The notes under the pieces are model-generated. The model was given only the letters and a program-made list of their open reading frames with translations, was not told the DNA's origin and did not search any database. This document shows positions 1,334 to 33,984 of a stretch of DNA of 33,984 nt, one piece after another. Made by a program: the position numbers and the translations under genes. Numbering within the stretch: position 1 is the stretch's first letter; every line of letters begins with the position of its first letter. This DNA is from Dimargaris cristalligena (taxonomy: Eukaryota): positions 1 to 33,984 of the forward strand of contig ML002398.1 in the NCBI GenBank assembly GCA_003614675.1, in the 5' to 3' direction.

Positions 1334-2260
1334 TTAGTAGCCGCCGTGGCCATGGCCATGACCATAGTCGCCCCCGTGGCCGGAACCGCCACCATAGCCG
1401 GAGCCATGTCCACCGTGACCGTGTCCTTCATGCCCGCGGTCGTGGTCACCGCCATGGCCGCCGTGACCGCCATGACCATGGCCGTAATCGCCCCCATGAC
1501 CATGACCACTATCGTAATCGCGGCCGTGACCGCCGTGACCATGCCCGCCACTGCCACCATAACCGTATCCATCACCACGACGGTAAGCGGAGTGGCCGCC
1601 GCCGTGGCCCCCATGACCGGATCCTTTACCACCGTGACCATGTCCGTAGTCTCCGCCATGGCCACCACCGCTATGGCCGTGTCCTTCATGCCCGCGATCA
1701 TAACCACCACCGTTCCCACCGTGGCCGCCGTTACCACCATGACCACCATTCCCGCCGTGGCCGGAACCGCCGCCGTGGCTCGACCAGTGCCCGCCATGAC
1801 TATATTCGAATTCGTGACCGTGGCCACCGTGTCCGTGTCCGTGTCCGCCATTGCCGCCGTAACCGTATCCATCACCACGGCGATAAATCGAGTGGCCGCC
1901 GCCGTAACCGGAGCCATGGCCACCATGTCCGTGGTTATAATCACCGCCATGACCGCCATGTCCCGGACCGCCACCATGACCGGAGCCGTGGCCACCGTGA
2001 CCGTGTTCTTCGTGGCCGCGGTCGTAGCCACCTCCATGGCCGCCGTGACCACCGTGCCCGCCGTTTCCACCATGACCGCCGTGGCCATGGCCATAATCGC
2101 CTCCGTGACCGTGGCCGTAATCACCTCCGTGGCCACCATGCGAGTAGCCCGAGCCGTAGCCGTCACCACGAACCACGAGGCTGTCGGGGGAGGGAGCGGC
2201 CATGGTACTGGCGGCCATGACACTGGCGAAGAGAGCGACGAATACTGCGTTGATCTTCAT
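1334..2260 (-). CDS. Secreted Gly/His/Tyr-rich repeat protein (308 aa), putative Kex2-processed precursor with three modules
   Basis: Intronless ORF. Signal-peptide-like N-terminus MKINAVFVALFASVMAASTMA, short pro-segment ending VVR, modules beginning GDGYG after R or YRR, C-terminus HGGY. Paralogue at 24002-24712. Confidence 0.9.
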   Translation of the reverse strand: MKINAVFVALFASVMAASTMAAPSPDSLVVRGDGYGSGYSHGGHGGDYGHGHGGDYGHGHGGHGGNGGHGGHGGHGGGYDRGHEEHGHGGHGSGHGGGPGHGGHGGDYNHGHGGHGSGYGGGHSIYRRGDGYGYGGNGGHGHGHGGHGHEFEYSHGGHWSSHGGGSGHGGNGGHGGNGGHGGNGGGYDRGHEGHGHSGGGHGGDYGHGHGGKGSGHGGHGGGHSAYRRGDGYGYGGSGGHGHGGHGRDYDSGHGHGGDYGHGHGGHGGHGGDHDRGHEGHGHGGHGSGYGGGSGHGGDYGHGHGHGGY

Positions 2261-2540
2261 CGTGGGAGAGTTTGGGATCGAAAATTAAAGATTAGAGTTT
2301 GTGGACTAGAGATATTGAATATTGGGAGAATTGGATCGGCCAAACTGAACTAGGATAAGGTGAGTAATGGATTGATTCACGTGGATGTAGGGATATTGTC
2401 TGAAGTTATCAAATAAGGGGGTACCAAAGTTTGCAAGTGCTGCAACAACTAGATCCAATGGATCTTGTAGAGAAGATGTAAGAGTAAAGTGAAGGAATGA
2501 GCAGAAGCTTGGTGTTCCAATGAAGGCCGAAACATGTCCC

Positions 2541-24001: not shown

Positions 24002-24712
24002 TTAGTAGCCACCGTGGCCGCCACCGCCGTGTCCCCAACCACCACCGCTGTTACCGCCGTGACCACCACCGTGGCCCCCACCGTGACCGCCACCATTGCC
24101 CCAACCGCCGCCGCTGCTACCGCCATGACCACCGCCGTGACCTCCACCACCATGTCCCCAGCCGTTGCCACCATGGCCGCCGCCGCCGTGACCACCACCT
24201 CCGTGACCCCATCCGTTGCCATGGCCGCCGCCGCCGTGACCGCCACCGCCATGTCCCCAGCCGCCTCCGCTATTACCGCCATGGCCCCAGGCGTTTCCGC
24301 CGTTGCCATAACCGTACCCATCACCGCGGCGGTAGAGGGCATAACCGCCGCCACTACCACCGTGACCACCGCCGCCATGGCCGCCGCCACCATGTCCGTG
24401 ACCACCATGTCCGTGACCACATCCGTCACCACCATGCCCGTGACCGCCACCAACGTGGCCCCATCCGTCACCACCATGTCCGTGACCACCACCACCATGC
24501 CCGTGACCGCCACCAACGTGGCCCCATCCGTCACCGCCGTGACCGCCACCGCCGTGGCCCCATCCGTCACCGCCGTGTCCGTGACCGCCACCGCCGTTGC
24601 CCCATCCATAGCCATCTCCGCGAGCGGCAAGCGAGCCGGTAGCGGGGGCGGCCATCGTGTTGACCGCCATGACGCTGGCGAGCAGAGTAGCCATTACAGC
24701 ATTGACCTTCAT
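24002..24712 (-). CDS. Secreted Gly/His/Trp-rich repeat protein (236 aa), putative Kex2-processed precursor with two modules
   Basis: Signal-peptide-like MKVNAVMATLLASVMAVNTMA, pro-segment ending LAAR, modules starting GDGYG after R and LYRR, GWGHGGGGH repeats, C-terminus HGGY. Clear paralogue of 1334-2260. Confidence 0.9.
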   Translation of the reverse strand: MKVNAVMATLLASVMAVNTMAAPATGSLAARGDGYGWGNGGGGHGHGGDGWGHGGGGHGGDGWGHVGGGHGHGGGGHGHGGDGWGHVGGGHGHGGDGCGHGHGGHGHGGGGHGGGGHGGSGGGYALYRRGDGYGYGNGGNAWGHGGNSGGGWGHGGGGHGGGGHGNGWGHGGGGHGGGGHGGNGWGHGGGGHGGGHGGSSGGGWGNGGGHGGGHGGGHGGNSGGGWGHGGGGHGGY

Positions 24713-27700
24713 CGTGAAGATAATTGGTTCAGACTAAGAGCCGCAGTCGAGTGGGTTAATTGTCGCCGAAAGGTGGCTGGTTGATCAACACCTGATCGAA
24801 ATTGCTTTGGATAATGTAAGAAGTTTGGATGTCGTGAAAGAAGTACCGACGCTGAGATTGAGCGCAGGTCACACTTGGAGTCGTTAAAGAGTCGTTAGAG
24901 GGAGTAATCTATAGAGAAGTTGGGTCTTGCGAATGTTGCAAGACCAATACTAGATTGAATCGTAACAGGCTTGAAAAGTGGTGTGTAAGAAGCGGAGAGC
25001 AGTGTTTTGATGAGTTAATACGAAGAGCAGGCAGGCCCTATATATACTAGCCATCAGCACTAATATTTTGATTTTCGTAGATATATTCCTAGCCTCGTCC
25101 ACCACCAAGGTACTAGAAAATGCAAGGCCTCTAGGAACTCTAGATGCTACACATCATTTAATGAATTCTGTATGAGTGATGCACCCCAAACCTCCGCCTT
25201 CCCCCCGGCATCGGATAGGTGGACTAAGCTAGGCACTGGACGATGTCCACCCCCATCGCCCGCCTTGCACTGCCTCCGGTCAGAAAACCTCGGCAGCAAT
25301 CTTTTATCTCGCTGATCTGTAATATTAAAAAGGAGGGAGGGGGCGTATGACGAGAGAACATGGCTACTCACAGTGAACACAGAATCACCCTCTCAGCCGA
25401 TGGACGTGTGTTATTCGAGTCATTCATGCAAAGGGGGGTATTCCGTGAAATTAAAGTAACCAACTGGATAATAACCCCCCTCTTCCCCTGGACGAACTAT
25501 TGGCCTTAACCCTCCCTCCCTCTTTTGGACCTTTCGCCTCCTGTGCACGCTTCTATTAAATTGCCTTGCTCACTCCACCCACTCCGCCAATTGACTAATG
25601 ACATTGACGCTGCACTCGGGGGGCCATTCGATAGACGAGTGGGCTCTAAATCATACCCTCTCCCTCAGCTTCCCAAGTCGGCATATTGTCACTAGGGGGT
25701 AAATCCACATTTCGAAATCTTAAATAGTCCAAGGAAACCCAGTCGCCCGATAAATGGGCATTTGGCTGGATCGGGAGGGGGGAGTGCTTCTGAACTACAG
25801 TTACAAAGCAGTCACAGACTCTATTCGGTTAAACTCTATTACGCAAATTCCAATACTAAGATTCGAAAAGGTACATAACCAACCGTCCACACATTTTCCC
25901 CCGTCCCTAACAGCGATCTCACAATTCAGTGAATAGGCAGTAATCTATGTGGCCTCTCCTGTTCTACTACATTCGTAAGCCCATTGCAATCCCTCCCATG
26001 TGGTTGATACACACCGGTTTGGGGGTATACTCCTTCTTACTGGAACATCCTTGGCTATGCTTAAATGGTCTGGATCCTAGCCCTGCCACTGTACCCCGAC
26101 AAAAGGTGGGAACATTGTGGCCACGTCGGCAATTGACCACTATAATGCATGCCACTCCTCTGTTCAGTCGCGGAACGAGGCTTAGTCAACTACGGCCACC
26201 TCGACGCTCACTCTGGCGTACATGCGCTTGCACATGGCCATATTGTTCGCTATGGGCCGAGTGGTTTGCTAGTACCCGCGGTTGAATTATGAGCTAACTT
26301 AGCGACTGTGTATGAATCAGCTTAATGGATGGCGCCATTGTCACATCCCTAAGGTATCAAGTATGCGTGACTCTTGATTGCAGATGCCTGCGGGAAATCG
26401 CTAGAAGAAAAAAACTGTAACATCTAATTCACTGACAACCTCTCGGCTGCTAGCATCTAAATGGCGCATACCCGTAGCGCCTCATTTTACTCATACGAAC
26501 CCCCTGAATATTGTATTCGCACTTTATCATTAGCCATTTCATCTCTGACAAGGTCATGTTATTCTCAAGTAAGTAGTGTCTACGCGGGGTTCGGGTCCGA
26601 TTACCTGATTGGGCTGAACCATCTAAAACCCCTCAAGTTAAAAATCGGAATGAAAGTTATTTAGGCTGACTAAGGGAGGTTTGGAGTCAGTGGACACATT
26701 CCAGTGAACTCGCACTTCGTTATGCTGGCAATAATGACGCCAGCCCAATATACGAGGAACTTGGTATTTGAAGTGGGTTAGGGGGTTACCTAGAATAAGT
26801 TGTCATAAAAATGGGTTTATAAACTATACTGAAGTAGTTTTACCTTGGGTTATGTGCTATTTAATGGTCTACGCCGCTATACTGTTCCTCAGGGATGGGT
26901 GGTGGAGAAGATGTCTACCCAGTTAATTGGCTATCCTTGGAAGTAGATAATGGGAGAACAAAATAGTTCTAAGGTACAGACTGACCTCCGATAACGTTTG
27001 GTGAACTTCATTTATTAGCCAGGCTTTGAGAAGCCGACAATTCTAATTATAGTGTCGCTCTATTATCTAGGCTGTAGGGGGGCGGAGGTCGGTCACCATT
27101 GAAAGAAGGGGGCGGGTATATCTAACTGAACCTGCCAGTGAGAAAGAATGGTCACCAAACGCCCTTAGTGGGAAGACTGAGGAGTCAAACTCGTGAAACA
27201 TTTCAAATGTATCCTAGTGAAGTATTGTTAGAGAAGGGGGATTTAATGTTTAATGTGAACCATAGGACTGGAAACCCTTTGAACCAGTTATACGTGTCGA
27301 AGGGATTCCACTACTACCCTACTGCTTCGAAAATACCCTAGTTATCTTTCTTAATTCCCCCGTCACTCCATTCCCCACCCACTATAAGCCCCAGTTACCC
27401 TCCACACTACCCTCCTCGAGTCCACTATCCGGCTATCGGGGGCATATGATTTCCCCCAAAATAGTTAGGTCGTATTTTAACATTATGATTGATGCGAACC
27501 TACCCACCTTTAATAATACGTTTCCCCTTTGACTAAAGATGGGTCTTTTCAGGCCATGCAATATTACATTTCATACTGCGGCCTCAATCGAAATACTCTG
27601 CTTATCCCCGGTGCCGTTCCCCTGCACTTAGGAGCTGGACTATGTAACGAATCATCAAAATCCTCGATTCGAGTTGGAAAGAGTAACACGGCTGGTTGTA

Positions 27701-28104
27701 CCCGTCACACTCTGTTGATAGTACGGCCAAATCACCGTGTTTCTTCAGAGTGTGGTTTATTTTGTCTATTGAGCCCCCCTTCCTCCCCCCCAAAAAAACT
27801 GCCCAAACTACACGAGTAAAGAACCACCGCCTGATTTCAGTTGAAAGGTCTGGTCGGTATGGTAGGAATAAAAATAAATACAATGTAATTACCTCGCCTT
27901 ATGCTAGTGGGCTGGATTTCACTCCCCCAGCCTGTAATTCGGCTATATGATGCGCCCTAGCCCTCTAAGATACCTTGATTTTATAACTGTGTATCCTGTA
28001 TCAACAATGCCTTTCGCCTATTTTCCTTTATCTTATTAGAGTGCAATACCTGTTGCCAACCCTCGACGAACTACAGCCTGTATTTTTGATGACACCGCTC
28101 CATC

Positions 28105-30031
28105 ATGGGACCATGTAGCATATATTTTATTATTTCGTGGACCTTGGTCCTTCTACTTAGCTTTGAAGTATTCGGCAACCCTGTTGACGCCAATACTAAC
28201 TCGATTAAAGTTAAACCAAACCAATTCAATAGCAATATCCAGATACCCTCATTGAATGATGATATTGACTCCGTGATGCCAGGAACCTATCCTCCTGCTA
28301 CCCACTTTGGGGCAACAGATTCCACTAAAGTTGTCAAGGCTGTGGTTTATGACTATGCGGAGTTGGACACGACCCGGAAGGACCAGCTATCCCATCTCCC
28401 CAATGAACTGCTAAACTGGATTCTCTACCTAGCATACGACCACCACTCTTGCACTGAGCTCACAAAAACTCCCTGAAAGATAGCGGCCATCCTTTCTTAT
28501 CACCCAATGGAACAAGTCAGGGTAAGCCATGTGTGTATTAATAAAGCAGTTGAAAGTCACGCTTCCGCAAAATTTACCCATAGCTTTTCACTCAGCCCAA
28601 AATATTCATTCACTCAACCTATCTTGCCCCTGATGCTTAATTACTGCCAACCCACATGTAACTGTACTAATCACCATATTTTTATACTTATGTTTACTCA
28701 CCTGTGTATTCAATGTCATGTGACTGGCACTCCAGTCAACTTTCAGGAATCTCCATCGGGGAATAAGCCAATTCAAGACTATGGAACTCACCACTAGCAG
28801 GGTCTTGGGTAAACTACAGATATGGCATGGCTAATCCAATCACTTGGTTGCTGACGGTTTGGCACCCCATAGTATTCGGGATATATTCCAAGCCTGGCAT
28901 CTATTACTCTGCTATCAAATAGATGGTGCCTATTTCAGCTACATCTACAGACACTGGGGGAAATTCACTGCTTTTATAAAAGCTGCCAATGCTAGCCAGG
29001 GTTTCCATGACCATCTCGCTAAACTCACCAGCTTCTATGCCCAGTTGAAAAAATATTGGGAATCTCCCATTTTCGAGAAAGACACATGGCGGTTCATCAA
29101 CCTTGCTGACCTATCTACTACAGATGTGGCTAAAAAGCTGCCGCTCATTGCCCTAGTCGATGATCAGCCAGATGGTTGCAGTGTTTGGCGAGTATTCCAA
29201 GTGCTCACAGACCCTACTATGCTCTGGCTCACCCAACACCCTTGGGTAGTTGATCATCATTTGGGATTCAAGCAACTCAACAGCACACTGCAGAATTGGA
29301 TATCCGCCGTTTGGCAGGCGGATGCCAGCTGGGACTATTCCCGGCTATGTGACCAACTATTCGGCACCGCCGCCACAATTCTAATGGCCCAGCTTACCAC
29401 CACCAGGCATTATGAGGAACTGTTGGACTTTATGATGGCTTTAAGCCAAGCGTATCTGGGCCGCCACAGCTGGGTGGTCACCCCCATTAGACTCTACTGG
29501 CTCTATGGCCTGGCTATCCTCCTGGTCGCCGTGGTTCGCCAAATGGATATGGTGGAATTTTTGGCTGTCTTGCACCACGACCATCACTCTGAGTCGAGCC
29601 CGGATTATTGTAGTCTAGGGGATGAAATGTGGGCGCTGGGCTTACTCGATAGTGCAGTTTTTCTAGAGTTGACCCTCAAGTGTGATGAATCACAGTTCGA
29701 CCAGCTGACCCAGCAACAGCAGTGGGAACTGACTTACAACCTCCCCTATCTTGACCAAATCCACCTCACGGATGATGGAAGTGCACAACTGGGTGTTGCC
29801 ATTCGTATAAGGGAATCAGAAATCGACAACCTACCTGAGTTGGCCGATATGGATGCATTTCCACCATATGAACCACAGTGGAACTTTATGGTGCACGCAC
29901 TTGATCCGGCGTTTTTTACTCTAGTCCGCAGTGCAGCCTATGCAGGATCTCGGCGTTTTATCCAAGAGCACAAAAACGTGGATATATCCAACCTTCTGCG
30001 GGATCGTTTCGAAATACCCTCTGATTTTTAA
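28105..30031 (+). pseudogene. Disabled paralogue of the secreted F-box-like protein gene (two in-frame stops)
   Basis: Exons 28105-28521 and 28736-30031, with the same phase-0 intron position as the neighbour. TGA at 28474-28476 and TAA at 28832-28834 interrupt a frame that aligns with the paralogue on both sides (TKTP*KIAAILSYHPMEQV vs LKTSKRIATIIMSHPTEKV; QIWHG*SNHLVADGLAPH vs EAWYLNLHRPMDSSLPTH). Confidence 0.8.
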
Positions 30032-30953
30032 CGAAGGCACACGGTGTATAGCCAGCAATACTATATGATATATATATATTATTACACAAAAAGCGTAGGC
30101 TTAAATCATACTATGTAGATATATAGATGGGAGAGAGGAGTTCAGTAAAGTTGTAAACGGCAGTATTTGTTATTATTAGATAAACGAGTAGGCTATTCGT
30201 TTTTCTATACATGGGAGAAAATCGACTGGAGTGCATTTTATCAAGTCCATTGAATGAGGAAAATACTATATATTAAAAAAAACCGTCTCCCCTGTTTTTC
30301 TATACTCATAGCATTTAAACCCTTATATTGCTGGGCCGAATTTCTTCCATCAAAGGCTGGACAAGACTTTTACCATGTTAACCTTATCATTTAACTATAG
30401 TTTTTTCTTTAGTCGCCATGAACGAGGGCGTCCAGTTGAGCCAATAAATAAAACAAAATGGAGGTCAGCCCAATTGGACACTTAAGTTACACAATATGTG
30501 CATCACCTGTTTAGTTGTAGCACTTCCGTCCACCCCCTGTGTCTTTCAAGGATAGGTTGGATGGGTTGCCCATTGATCAATCCCCATTAAAAAGTCGGCG
30601 GTGGCGTTGGTGATGGAATAATGGGCAACAAGGGGGGCGTTTATACGCAATTAGGTTATTTCCACAGTGTGTAAAAATAGGGATGCTCATACATTAGCCA
30701 ATGTGTAGGTAAAGCAGCTGAACTGGAAATCCTGGTTTGCGGTTCGCTGCAGCTTTGTTTACATTGTAACGAAACGGATCCGCTCACCCCAGCCTGGCCT
30801 TTCTCCTCTTTTATATGGTCTTCGGGGATTTTGTCGCTAATACGGTGACATTTGTCTAGATTATCTCGTCTGATTACTTTTCTAGTTTTTCTGGTCCATT
30901 GGAACGTAATCGCTTTCAGAAATCATTATTATATCAAAATACGTTCTTTTAGG

Positions 30954-32992
30954 ATGCGTCTCATTCATCTTATTGTCTTCGGTTTCAGTGTTAGGGTGCA
31001 CGCTCAGCTGGGCCCGGATACACTTGAAAGTACACTGGGTAAGTCCGACCTTGGCGATTCGGGTAAAATAACTGACTCAGCGGCCTTCCGAACCAGTACA
31101 CATCCACCCGTCCCAGCCGATCAGATATCAAGCCCCGCTACCCAGCCTGTCGAATTGCCAGAGCGAGCTTCATACCCTGACGCGATAATTGACCCCTCGA
31201 CACTTGATTTTCTGAAGAACATTCCCGTCGAAATATTACAGCCAATTTTGTATAAGGCTTATGACAGATATACCCGCCTAGAGCTTTTGAAGACTTCCAA
31301 AAGAATAGCGACTATCATCATGAGTCACCCAACAGAGAAAGTACTGGTAGGTTACTCGAACTATATATTTAGCAGTCTTTTGAGGGTTTATTATTATACC
31401 ATTAGTTGAAGGGGAGTCATTTCCGAACAAGACACCATTTTTTGACAATACTCTAGGATGGACCCAGCATAGTTTTCCATATTTAGATATTCGTTATTAC
31501 ATTTCCACACTAAGTATTGAAATACAATCTCCGAAACTTCGCCTATAGTAAATCGCACATCATATTGCAGCCACTAACTATTTACCCTCGACTTGATGTA
31601 CACCGTCCTTTGCTATACACCCCATACCATGGCTTTCTACCCACTCCTCGCACCCTGCCCCTTCACACTTGGGAAACTCAGACGCTATACCGCGGTTTAC
31701 AGCGTAGAATTAAACTGCATGAAGCGGAAGACTGGTCCTTAAGAGGCATCCGGGCGAAGTTCGAGGCCTGGTATTTAAATCTCCACCGACCGATGGATAG
31801 TAGTCTACCCACCCATGGGATTCCGGGGACACTCCAGGTCTGGTTTCAGTTGCTCTCTCACCAAATATCCGGCTGTCTATTTTTACACGAATTTTCCTCG
31901 CTGATATCATTGAACACTTGGTTTAAAGACCACCTCCTGGAAGAACAAACGGTGGTGAAACTCTACCAAATCGGACAGCAGTACAATTTTATGAGGGTGA
32001 ACCACAACAGGCCACGTTTTCAGAAAGACGCCTGGCGGACGGTTAATCCCACCCATATGACACCCTCGATCCTGGCCGACCAACTTCCTCTCGTGGCCCT
32101 CGTGGACGCAATACCCCGAGGCCCCGATCTCCTTGACATGTTGAGTACCCTCACTAATCCATTTCTCATCGAGCTCGTCCAACGGTTTGATACCCGAAGT
32201 CCCACCTCTGAATTTCGTGCATTGGATGAGGATTTAAGACACTGGATTGTACTAATTCAGGAGCCCGAGATTAGAGGGCGTATGTACTGGTTGTACCGGC
32301 GGCTTTTTCACAACATAGCAACTATTATTATGGCCCGGCTGGTTACTACTGAGCGGTATATTGATTTGCGCCAGTTCGTCGAAGGCCTGCCACGGGTATT
32401 GGAGCTGAGCGGTAAGTTCATGTATGATCCAAAAGATCTCGGGTCATTACAACGTCTGGCTATTGTAATGGCCGCCGTGGCCCATCAGAAGCAACAGGTG
32501 TACAACTTACCGGATTCCCACATCAGCGACACGACTGACCGTAGCCCTGCAACTACGTTAAAAGTGAAATGCTCATTAGCTGAAGTAATGCGAAAGCTGG
32601 ACTTACCGCGCGGTGCAGAGTTTTTGGAACAAACATTGACCTGCCCGGGGCCCGAACAGGATGGAGTAGATAGTCTACCGATATGGGAGGTGGGCCACTG
32701 CCTTAAATTTATCGAGCAAATCCGATTGACCGATGAGGATAGGCCGCAAATGGGAGTGGTCGTTCGCGACTTGAGGTTTCATTTTAGCCCCGCTGGAGAG
32801 ATGCCGAACATGGGACTTTGGCCGTATTACAGAACCACCTGGGACTTCTATACGCATGGGTATGACCCCAAGTTTTATGATCAGGTACGGAGAATAGCAT
32901 ATGTGGGTTACAAACGGTATGGGATTGGGAGTATTTTGATAAGACCAAGTGAGATTCTACGGGACCGTCGCTCTATTCCCACTGATTTTTAG
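30954..32992 (+). CDS. Hypothetical secreted protein with F-box-like motif and uncharacterised C-terminal domain (about 567 aa)
   Basis: Exons 30954-31346 and 31682-32992. GTAGGT donor, CTAAC branch at about 31574, and the first downstream AG at 31680-31681. N-terminus MRLIHLIVFGFSVRVHA. Motif LKNIPVEILQPILYKAY...LELLKTSKRI. Shares F.KD.WR..N, LPL.ALVD, QI.LTD, WDF..H..DP.F and LRDR..IP.DF with the upstream copy. Confidence 0.8.
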
Positions 32993-33984
32993 GTTACACT
33001 AGGTTTGGAAACAGCCACTGATTTTGGATATTCAAAAATGTACGCCGAATTATATCGGCAGTAACGGGTTGCAGCCAGGTCCTATATTCGAACAACTCAC
33101 CCATATGAAGCGAATCAAACAATAGAAGAAAAATATTGCAAGAGTGATAAGGTGAAAGCAATTTACAAAATACCACGCGCACGTATCTGCGGATAATGGG
33201 TTGAACGGGGGGGGCATGATTTAGGGCCAATAAAACTTCTTTGGTAACAAATAAGGGCCAGCGGACATGGCCGAACAAGAAGCCCAGACTAGGCCAAGGG
33301 TATTCAAACTAAAGAGATTATAGCCAGACTGGTCGTGTATGTCATAGTCTGGGTATCAGCATTAAATAAGTGTATTGCAAGTTTTCCATTGATAAAAAAA
33401 TACATGTTTAATATAAATCCCCGTATCATAAGCCATAGGCTATAATCAAGCCATCGCCGTGACCTACCAGAGAAAATAAAACATTCCTAAGGTCAAATTG
33501 GGAACGCTGGACCGGGTTCGGCTTGATTCAAAAGATGAGGGGCAATGCCATCCTGTGCCCAAAAGGGTATTGGTAATCTCACTCCAATGTCTAGTCGATT
33601 TCCGTAGAAAGTTTAATCTGGCACATCGTTTTTTGTTCACTTTACTCATTATTTGTGAATCAATTGTTCAGCCATCCCTCCAGCTTACCGATATAGAATC
33701 GTCCCTTCCTTCCCTATAGTGTAAATTGGCACTTAAAATAGATGGTGATGTACCAATCCCTTTCATATATATATCACTGAATTCTATCAGGCTATTAATA
33801 AACATACTGGTAAAGTCTATGTCACCCCTCCTAATCCAACCTAATCCATCCACTAATGATTGCCGTCATAATAGGCTGTATAGTGCTGTGGCAAGGTGGA
33901 GTGTCCCCTTGATTACCACAGGTATGAATTATTACTATTTGATTATTATATTTATATATAAGGTATGAAGTGGCTTTTTTATCT

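Follow-up and report, generated by a model that had tools for sequence, protein, structure and literature searches.

To our knowledge, the effectors of biotrophic fungi that parasitise other fungi are almost entirely uncharted, and whereas bacteria, viruses and a gall midge hijack host SCF ligases, we know of no characterised case in fungi. F-box proteins normally work in the cytosol or nucleus, and VirF of Agrobacterium is one example of a bacterial F-box effector. RipG7/GALA of Ralstonia and SSGP-71 of the Hessian fly are described as F-box effectors that bind host Skp1-like proteins, with RipG7 binding the SKP1-like proteins of Arabidopsis (PMC4617103). In Rhizophagus clarus, NLS_30765 is described as a predicted secreted protein with an F-box-like Pfam domain and a proposed role in interfering with host signalling (PMC4746824). 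Our literature search returned no paper joining 'Dimargaris' and 'F-box', and the genome paper does not use the terms 'secret', 'effector', 'F-box' or 'ubiquitin' in its main text.

The window considered here is the whole stretch of DNA that was analysed, 33,984 nucleotides long. Its source names place it in Dimargaris cristalligena, an early-diverging parasitic fungus that lives on other fungi and looks obligate; the Dimargaritales are described as haustorial mycoparasites (PMC3734964; PMC10386755). Weak growth of the parasite in axenic culture is reported (PMC6784888), and further Dimargaritales genomes exist for Dispira, Tieghemiomyces and D. xerosporica (PMC9866270). An earlier note on this DNA had supposed a parasitic early-diverging fungus, with which this origin agrees. 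The + strand carries two tandem paralogues, gene 1 (28105-30031) and gene 2 (30954-32992), with the following features.

28105-28521, + strand: gene 1 exon 1, comprising the leader (about 28105-28176), a linker and the F-box-like segment from 28387 (open reading frame, first ATG, homology to gene 2)
28474-28476, + strand: in-frame TGA within the gene 1 F-box-like segment (read from the sequence)
28522-28735, + strand: inferred gene 1 intron, GT..AG, phase 0, 214 nt (sequence, and homology of the flanking codons to gene 2)
28736-30031, + strand: gene 1 exon 2, C-terminal domain, stop codon included in the end (tblastn, BLASTP)
28832-28834, + strand: in-frame TAA within gene 1 exon 2 (the frame-2 open reading frame begins only past it)
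30954-31004, + strand: gene 2 signal-peptide-like leader, 17 aa, ending VHA before Q (first ATG of the open reading frame)
31005-31199, + strand: gene 2 linker, about 65 aa, rich in Ser, Thr, Pro and Asp (translation)
31200-31346, + strand: gene 2 F-box-like segment, 49 aa, closing exon 1 (alignment, AF2, Foldseek, VIA-align)
31347-31681, + strand: predicted gene 2 intron, GT..AG, phase 0, 335 nt (sequence and family alignment)
31682-32992, + strand: gene 2 exon 2, predicted alpha-solenoid plus a small C-terminal alpha/beta part, 436 aa and stop (open reading frame, AF2)

The two genes are laid out alike. In each, a hydrophobic leader starts at the first ATG of the first open reading frame (28105; 30954), with no in-frame ATG upstream of either position, and is followed by a Ser/Thr/Pro/Asp-rich linker, an F-box-like motif (LSHLPNELL from 28387 in gene 1; LKNIPVEIL from 31212 in gene 2) and a predicted phase-0 GT..AG intron immediately 3' of the motif end, 'HP.E.V'. 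In both genes leader, linker and motif lie within a single open reading frame running from the first ATG, which rules out that a faulty gene model brought them together. Identity between the two genes is 31% in the C-terminal parts (396 aa; BLASTP, E 2e-55) and 29% in the first exons (115 aa; E 3e-08); tblastn detected no third family copy in the window. The leader, the motif starts (conserved in the paralogues) and the shared intron are all as the earlier note had described them. Its claim of tandem paralogues of the same architecture holds for the layout and the identity, but gene 1 is broken by the TGA at 28474 and the TAA at 28832.

Read from the sequence, gene 2 is intact, with 131 and 436 uninterrupted codons and good splice sites. 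The preferred model joins the 131 aa of exon 1 to the 436 aa encoded from 31682, giving the spliced protein of 567 aa that had been proposed. With another in-frame acceptor, at 31570, the product would instead have 604 aa; the 567-aa model is favoured because homologues run straight from 'HP.E..' to '..TY..LQ' in the family alignment. The public gene models at the locus are fragments, i.e. 203 and 225 aa for gene 2 and, for gene 1, only a 270-aa model that starts at an internal Met (P0006/P0043).

The C-terminal domain of about 430 aa is confidently predicted to fold as an alpha-solenoid: AF2 modelling of 31571-32989, using family covariation, gave a pLDDT of 85.5 and a pTM of 0.86. No Pfam family was found for this domain and no LRR Pfam match in the family, the modelled solenoid being helical throughout apart from a small beta part. 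Candidate relatives were rejected. The best Foldseek match (E 0.089, TM at most 0.18) was not specific, and the best VIA-align score (Z 7.5) was to designed helical repeats, these fold searches barely reaching the last ~100 residues. The domain could not be assigned when it was first noticed, and these searches, including the Foldseek check proposed then, leave it without a specific relative. The solenoid contains Cys334 and Cys358 (numbered on the 473-aa translation of 31571-32989), which co-vary over the 33 rows of the alignment, both being present in 25, neither in 7 and one in 1. Such co-variation is what would be expected of a disulfide pair, and a disulfide-like pair is unusual in a protein meant for a reducing cytoplasm.

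Gene 1 is probably a pseudogene, the decayed neighbour of gene 2, because both of its stops occur in contigs from two studies; the TGA and the TAA are unchanged in the contigs of three runs. Exon 2 is open only from 28835, while tblastn with gene 2 exon 2 as query matched 28733-30028 (E 5e-53) in one alignment spanning the TAA, and homology to gene 2 likewise continues past the TGA (KIAAILSYHP in gene 1, RIATIIMSHP in gene 2). Splicing does not rescue the frame: removal of the TGA is ruled out as there is no upstream GT donor, and use of the 64-nt GT..AG pair that flanks the TAA would bring a frameshift and an early stop. These two stops would suit a locus that is decaying as a whole and has no present function, with gene 2 perhaps unexpressed, as would the fragmentary public annotations of gene 2 and the four differences between the contigs of the two studies, three of which change an amino acid. 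We nevertheless regard this as very improbable, given the unbroken frame and good splice sites of gene 2, the quality of its modelled domain and the retention of the architecture in about 30 paralogues.

The range of the family was determined with phmmer against 1.84 billion representatives (E <= 1e-3). This gave 35 matches, and 31 of the 32 with source names came from D. cristalligena; the family comprises about 33 loci. The lone match outside Dimargaris, Nakaseomyces glabratus P0011 (2223 aa), was rejected as a repeat-inflated chance match because a single 46-aa, 27.7-bit match is counted again in every copy of a perfect tandem repeat. In a word-indexed homologue search with gene 2 exon 2 none of 6283 candidates scored, and with the family profile only three proteins were recovered, all from D. 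cristalligena. In the ESM Atlas the highest score, 0.83, went to Clr5-type clusters; recognition was low, and this was taken as noise. Within the databases searched, the family is specific to this species, in line with the lineage-specific family first suggested. Mean column identity across the family is 17% and the median terminal branch in a quick tree is 1.06 changes per site; comparison of two assemblies over 9707 aligned residues showed 71 mismatches, the figure for three loci being near 3%. The family is lineage-restricted, expanded and divergent, as are secreted effectors of filamentous parasites.

We compared the F-box-like segment across the family and with known structures. The 18 aligned segments all share the Pro and one Leu, the Glu is at least 90% conserved, and the consensus is L..LP.ELL..I...A....R..L..TSK. 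The family alignment contains the F-box pattern, L-P-x-E-(I/L)-L ... L ... (V/T)-(S/C)-K, with conserved spacing. The motif is not a chance occurrence because it recurs at the same relative position in the paralogues. AF2 modelling of 31200-31346 (pLDDT 84.9; main helices 10-20, 23-32 and 34-41) predicts in silico that the segment adopts the three-helix F-box fold. Foldseek searches of this 49-aa model against the PDB returned F-box, Skp1 or SCF entries for 24 of the 29 matches listed, with TM 0.56-0.69 (0.46 in one row) and rmsd 1.2-2.7 A. When VIA-align was run on 48,161 representative chains, the best 16 rows were all F-box proteins (Z 5.6-3.8, 41-48 of the 49 residues aligned), and the second-best match was the Legionella effector AnkB bound to Skp1 (Z 5.4, 48 residues). 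The scores themselves are weak for this query of just 49 aa, with Foldseek E values all 3-10 and Z all below 6, and the AF2 model may merely echo a remembered motif.

Sequence profiles gave a mixed picture. In the Pfam check that had been proposed for the window's proteins, neither of the two exon-1 translations matched an F-box even at E <= 10. Across 23 family proteins, a single one, the paralogue P0035, cleared the PF00646 cut-off (22.0 against 20.5 bits), with P0034, P0044 and P0060 sub-threshold. The motif profile matched 15 PDB sequences at E <= 10, none of them an F-box. The profile's sole match outside the family, P0061, bears a Pfam F-box at residues 232-267, and hhalign places the profile in register on residues 232-271 of this protein (probability 67.6%). 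UniRef labels eight family loci 'F-box domain-containing'. The strict LPxE pattern is present at 20 of the 33 loci, one of them probably false, and leader and motif occur together at 15 of 33, many of the public models being truncated. Helix 3 of an F-box usually has a Trp, which is absent from the family segment. The F-box assignment of the earlier note is supported by the consensus, the predicted fold and P0035, but not by Pfam on the window's own proteins or by the PDB sequence search.

These gaps bear on a second reading, in which the three-helix segment, whether F-box-derived or convergent, caps the solenoid of secreted or cell-surface parasite proteins that do not bind Skp1, have no role in ubiquitination and act outside the host cytoplasm, e.g. 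in the haustorial matrix or wall. Pfam matches that are absent or sub-threshold in most members, a PDB sequence search free of F-boxes, the loss of a clear LPxE from about one third of loci and a co-varying Cys pair suited to an extracellular protein all argue for it, while N-glycosylation sequons, of which there are none, point neither way. We consider it rather unlikely, as the near-invariant positions are the hallmark F-box Pro, Glu and Leu, held in a family of such low mean identity, and two independent structure searches ranked Skp1-bound F-boxes first.

The (-3,-1) rule describes signal-peptide cleavage sites, and the positive-inside rule states that membrane topology follows the distribution of charge. 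In gene 2, an 8-residue hydrophobic window (KD 2.64) lies behind a positive n-region. Across the family, a crude heuristic of hydrophobicity and charge called 24 of 33 loci signal-peptide-like, with one evident false positive and two evident misses by eye, and was negative on all five housekeeping controls from the window. On this hand-made heuristic, the leader, previously proposed to be a signal peptide, looks like a cleavable one. The hydrophobic cores are short (8-16 uncharged residues in most) and are followed by small residues, as at cleavage sites. Charges precede the short h-region rather than follow it, the sequence being net positive before the core and neutral or negative beyond, which by the positive-inside rule would place the C-terminal part in the lumen.

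This topology matters for a third reading, that these F-box proteins are ordinary intracellular ones belonging to the SCF ligases of the parasite itself, with the hydrophobic stretch as an ER or organelle anchor that leaves F-box and solenoid in the parasite cytoplasm. The cytosol or nucleus is the normal site for such proteins and membrane-associated F-box proteins exist, both of which fit. Set against this are the short cores, the lumenal placement of the C-terminal part, the cleavage-site-like small residues, the co-varying cysteines and a family range, among 1.84 billion representatives, unlike that of housekeeping SCF receptors. We judge the intracellular reading distinctly unlikely.

The best explanation of the evidence, unproven and falling a little short of probable in our estimation, is that the gene 2 product is a secreted F-box effector that hijacks the host SCF. 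The protein would begin with a cleavable signal peptide and continue through a disordered linker and an F-box to an alpha-solenoid specific to the family. It would enter the secretory pathway, be released at the haustorial interface and reach the host cytoplasm, although we know of no route of protein uptake into a fungal host. There, conserved host Skp1 would be the docking site of the F-box, a host SCF would form around a receptor supplied by the parasite, and the solenoid would pick host proteins for ubiquitination. More tentatively, the family as a whole may comprise some 30 F-box proteins exported via haustoria into host hyphae, where they would join host Skp1 and Cullin to doom host proteins; this would be the first E3-ligase mimicry of fungus on fungus, with an alpha-solenoid receptor not seen before. 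The pairing of signal peptide and F-box makes host SCF hijacking a clear and testable prediction, and with about 30 natural variants of a single new substrate-binding fold, the family would be useful for finding host targets.

How does the family compare with known systems? Canonical F-box proteins (Pfam PF00646 and PF12937; e.g. Skp2, Cdc4, FBXL, FBXO) share with it the LPxE(L/I)L...L..(V/T)SK pattern, the predicted three-helix fold and a C-terminal interaction domain. However, canonical members lack a signal peptide, and the Dimargaris members mostly fall under Pfam thresholds and lack the helix-3 Trp. The bacterial effectors RipG/GALA, AnkB and VirF resemble the family in the F-box mimicry proposed for it, by which host SCF ligase is recruited. 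They differ in their delivery by type III or type IV injection and in their LRR or ankyrin domains, whereas the Dimargaris proteins would travel by the eukaryotic ER pathway and have a new domain. NLS_30765 is likened to the family by its description, since it too belongs to an early-diverging fungus, is predicted to be secreted and has an F-box-like domain, but it is a single uncharacterised candidate from a plant symbiont. SSGP-71 of Mayetiola destructor differs in having LRRs in place of the orphan alpha-solenoid, a plant rather than a fungal host, and demonstrated Skp binding where that of the Dimargaris family to Skp1 is predicted. In other respects SSGP-71 resembles what is predicted for Dimargaris, as a large lineage-specific family of a eukaryotic parasite that combines an N-terminal secretion signal, an F-box missing in some members and a repeat domain thought to choose host targets (PMC4617103).

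The two-gene anatomy of the tandem pair is real, with leader, linker, F-box-like segment, intron and C-terminal domain laid out as follows:

28105-30031, + strand: gene 1, laid out as gene 2, with a predicted phase-0 intron (28522-28735) in the matching position
30954-32992, + strand: gene 2, recognised by its ORF and homology

From its first ATG, the gene 2 ORF opens with MRLIHLIVFGFSVRVHA/QLGPD and continues into a linker rich in Ser, Thr, Pro and Asp; exon 1 closes with the segment TLDFLKNIPVEILQPILYKAYDRYTRLELLKTSKRIATIIMSHPTEKVL at 31346, followed by the donor GTAGGT. Two in-frame AG acceptors are available, at 31570 and 31681, the first of which would give a product of 604 aa. In the family alignment the homologues run directly from 'HP.E..' to '..TY..LQ..L', where TLYRGLQRRIKL of gene 2 matches, and the 37 gene 2 residues upstream of TLYRGLQRRIKL have no counterpart. 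Because the homologues join at this point and those residues are unmatched, the preferred intron is 31347-31681, giving the 567-aa spliced product proposed in the earlier note, which the ORF structure also supports. The public gene 2 models are fragments, one a partial of 203 aa and the other a protein of 225 aa.

The same note had described two paralogues of one architecture. The layout and the phase-0 intron are indeed common to both, but gene 1 is broken, one of the two family genes in the window, by a TGA (28474-28476) within the F-box-like segment and a TAA (28832-28834) in exon 2. Its homology to gene 2 (31% identical, E 2e-55) persists across both stops. The 5 kb of both genes is spanned in one piece by contigs from three runs, which belong to two studies. 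The contig of one study departs from the window sequence at four positions (28389, 29931, 31724 and 32339), none of them at a stop; with the codons read by hand, one difference is silent and the other three replace an amino acid. Gene 1 is read as a recent pseudogene, and both public annotations show it only as a 270-aa model starting at an internal Met. In a quick tree the two genes were not mutual nearest relatives, gene 2 grouping with the family protein P0036 (SH-aLRT 94) and gene 1 with P0009 (SH-aLRT 90). Within 28000-33000 all four between-study differences lie in coding parts of the two genes, and the ∼1.5 kb of intronic and intergenic sequence has none; these numbers are too small to test. 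Between the genes, the contigs of each of the three runs cover 30295-30344 at 10-25 times the depth of its flanks; because many short contigs also terminate there, this looks like a dispersed repeat of ∼33-50 nt.

The assignment of the motif to the Skp1-binding F-box pattern stood in part. Pfam gave no match at E ≤ 10 on the window's exon-1 translations, and a motif profile of 18 aligned segments found no F-box among PDB sequences. The consensus of this profile, by contrast, is L..LP.ELL..I...A....R..L..TSK, with the Pro and one Leu invariant, and AlphaFold2 predicted helices at residues 10-20, 23-32 and 34-41 of the 49-aa gene 2 segment (pLDDT 84.9). Against 350,542 PDB chains, 24 of the 29 Foldseek matches listed were F-box, Skp1 or SCF entries (rmsd 1.2-2.7 Å over 33-46 columns), although with E-values of only 3-10. 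VIA-align, which is independent of Foldseek, was run against 48,161 representative chains and its best 16 rows were all F-box proteins (Z 5.6-3.8), including FBXO42, Legionella AnkB-Skp1, FBXL17, FBXL2, FBXL5, Skp2, FBH1, Cdc4, FBXO3, cyclin F, beta-TrCP, COI1, FBXO31 and Fbs2. Among 23 family proteins, P0035 alone passed the curated Pfam cut-off, with P0034, P0044 and P0060 sub-threshold; eight family loci carry the UniRef name 'F-box domain-containing'. Searched against longer proteins, the profile matched 10 D. cristalligena proteins and one outsider (P0061, E 9.7), whose Pfam F-box lies at 232-267 and on which hhalign places the profile at 232-271. By fold and consensus, the gene 2 segment is reasonably supported in silico as a divergent predicted F-box.

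With the 33-row family alignment, AlphaFold2 modelled the C-terminal domain (pLDDT 85.5, pTM 0.86) as a helix stack from about residue 31 to 370 followed by a small alpha/beta part. Pfam assigned no family; the best Foldseek match had an E-value of 0.089 (TM at most 0.18), and the best VIA-align match, to designed helical repeats, had a Z of 7.5, under the tool's own meaningful level for helical proteins. The domain that the earlier reader could not place therefore appears to be a helical-repeat scaffold without an identifiable relative. Such a shape would plausibly suit a substrate receptor; the predicted fold says nothing specific on function.

A phmmer search of 1.84 billion cluster representatives with gene 2 exon 2 gave 35 matches at E ≤ 1e-3 (28 at E ≤ 1e-10, five at E ≤ 1e-30). 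Source names were obtained for 32, leaving out P0030, P0031 and P0033, and 31 of these were from D. cristalligena, in two annotated assemblies. The other, a 2223-aa Nakaseomyces glabratus repeat protein, was rejected as a relative: a weak 46-aa match had been tallied once per tandem repeat. Word-indexed searches found nothing further beyond D. cristalligena. The proposed lineage-specific family is supported in the databases searched. With one locus for each representative, and the two window genes added, the family comes to 33 loci. Exact look-up gave D. cristalligena as the source of the window's closest database proteins. Dimargaritales are described in the consulted parts of two papers as mycoparasites that attack Mucorales and some Ascomycota by haustoria (PMC3734964, PMC10386755); the family is, as far as the databases go, confined to a haustorial mycoparasite. 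The 718-aa public model P0047, on another contig, runs a family member together with part of a cytochrome P450 (Pfam p450 at 622-683; UniRef name 'Cytochrome P450') and is probably a merged gene model.

Most of the longer family models start with similar leaders, e.g. MQPRYIGLLSLAVLSLLL and MKAQRISIVGLVVLGLAV. A hand-made heuristic (hydrophobic 8-residue window, its position and uncharged-core length) was positive for 24 of 33 loci, with one evident false positive, which stems from a truncated model, and two clear leaders missed; five housekeeping proteins of the window were negative. The strict LPxE pattern occurs at 20/33 loci, and together with a leader at 15/33; several misses of either are truncated or mis-spliced public models, and in one clade the motif seems degenerate. 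The leader cores are short, with positive charge ahead of the core and the next 15 residues neutral or acidic, which suits a cleavable signal better than an anchor with the C-terminus on the cytosolic side. Two Cys in adjacent solenoid elements co-vary (both in 25 rows, neither in seven, one in one), a signal inflated by row relatedness; a disulfide pair would do this. One subfamily (P0050, P0051, P0035 and P0032) has a common conserved stretch, A-A-P-G/S-L/I-S-M ... H-D-D-F-D, that directly follows the leader and could act as a motif in processing or targeting.

Elsewhere in the window lie housekeeping genes with introns (dihydroorotate dehydrogenase, UMP1, Integrator subunit 3, a mitochondrial carrier, a Kelch/LCM protein and a Bin3 methyltransferase). 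Two paralogous ORFs, 1334-2284 (-) and 24002-24733 (-), have signal-peptide-like starts, MKINAVFVALFASVMAAS.. and MKVNAVMATLLASVMAVN.., then long Gly/His-rich repeats (GGHGGHG..); both were positive by the leader heuristic, neither has a Pfam family, and they are possibly secreted, as metal-binding or wall proteins.

Our literature search found no description of this family and no paper combining 'Dimargaris' and 'F-box'. The main text of the D. cristalligena genome paper nowhere contains 'secret', 'effector', 'F-box' or 'ubiquitin', and a zygomycete secretome paper has no mention of Dimargaris or F-box; the supplements of either could list the proteins. Secretion to hijack a host SCF ubiquitin ligase, with putative Skp1 binding, is a coherent proposed mechanism, to which we give slightly less than an even chance. 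Comparable systems appear in the consulted parts of the published record: Rhizophagus clarus has an F-box-like secreted candidate (PMC4746824), and host Skp1 is bound by F-box mimics, secreted or injected, of Ralstonia (RipG7) and the Hessian fly (the SSGP-71 family) (PMC4617103).
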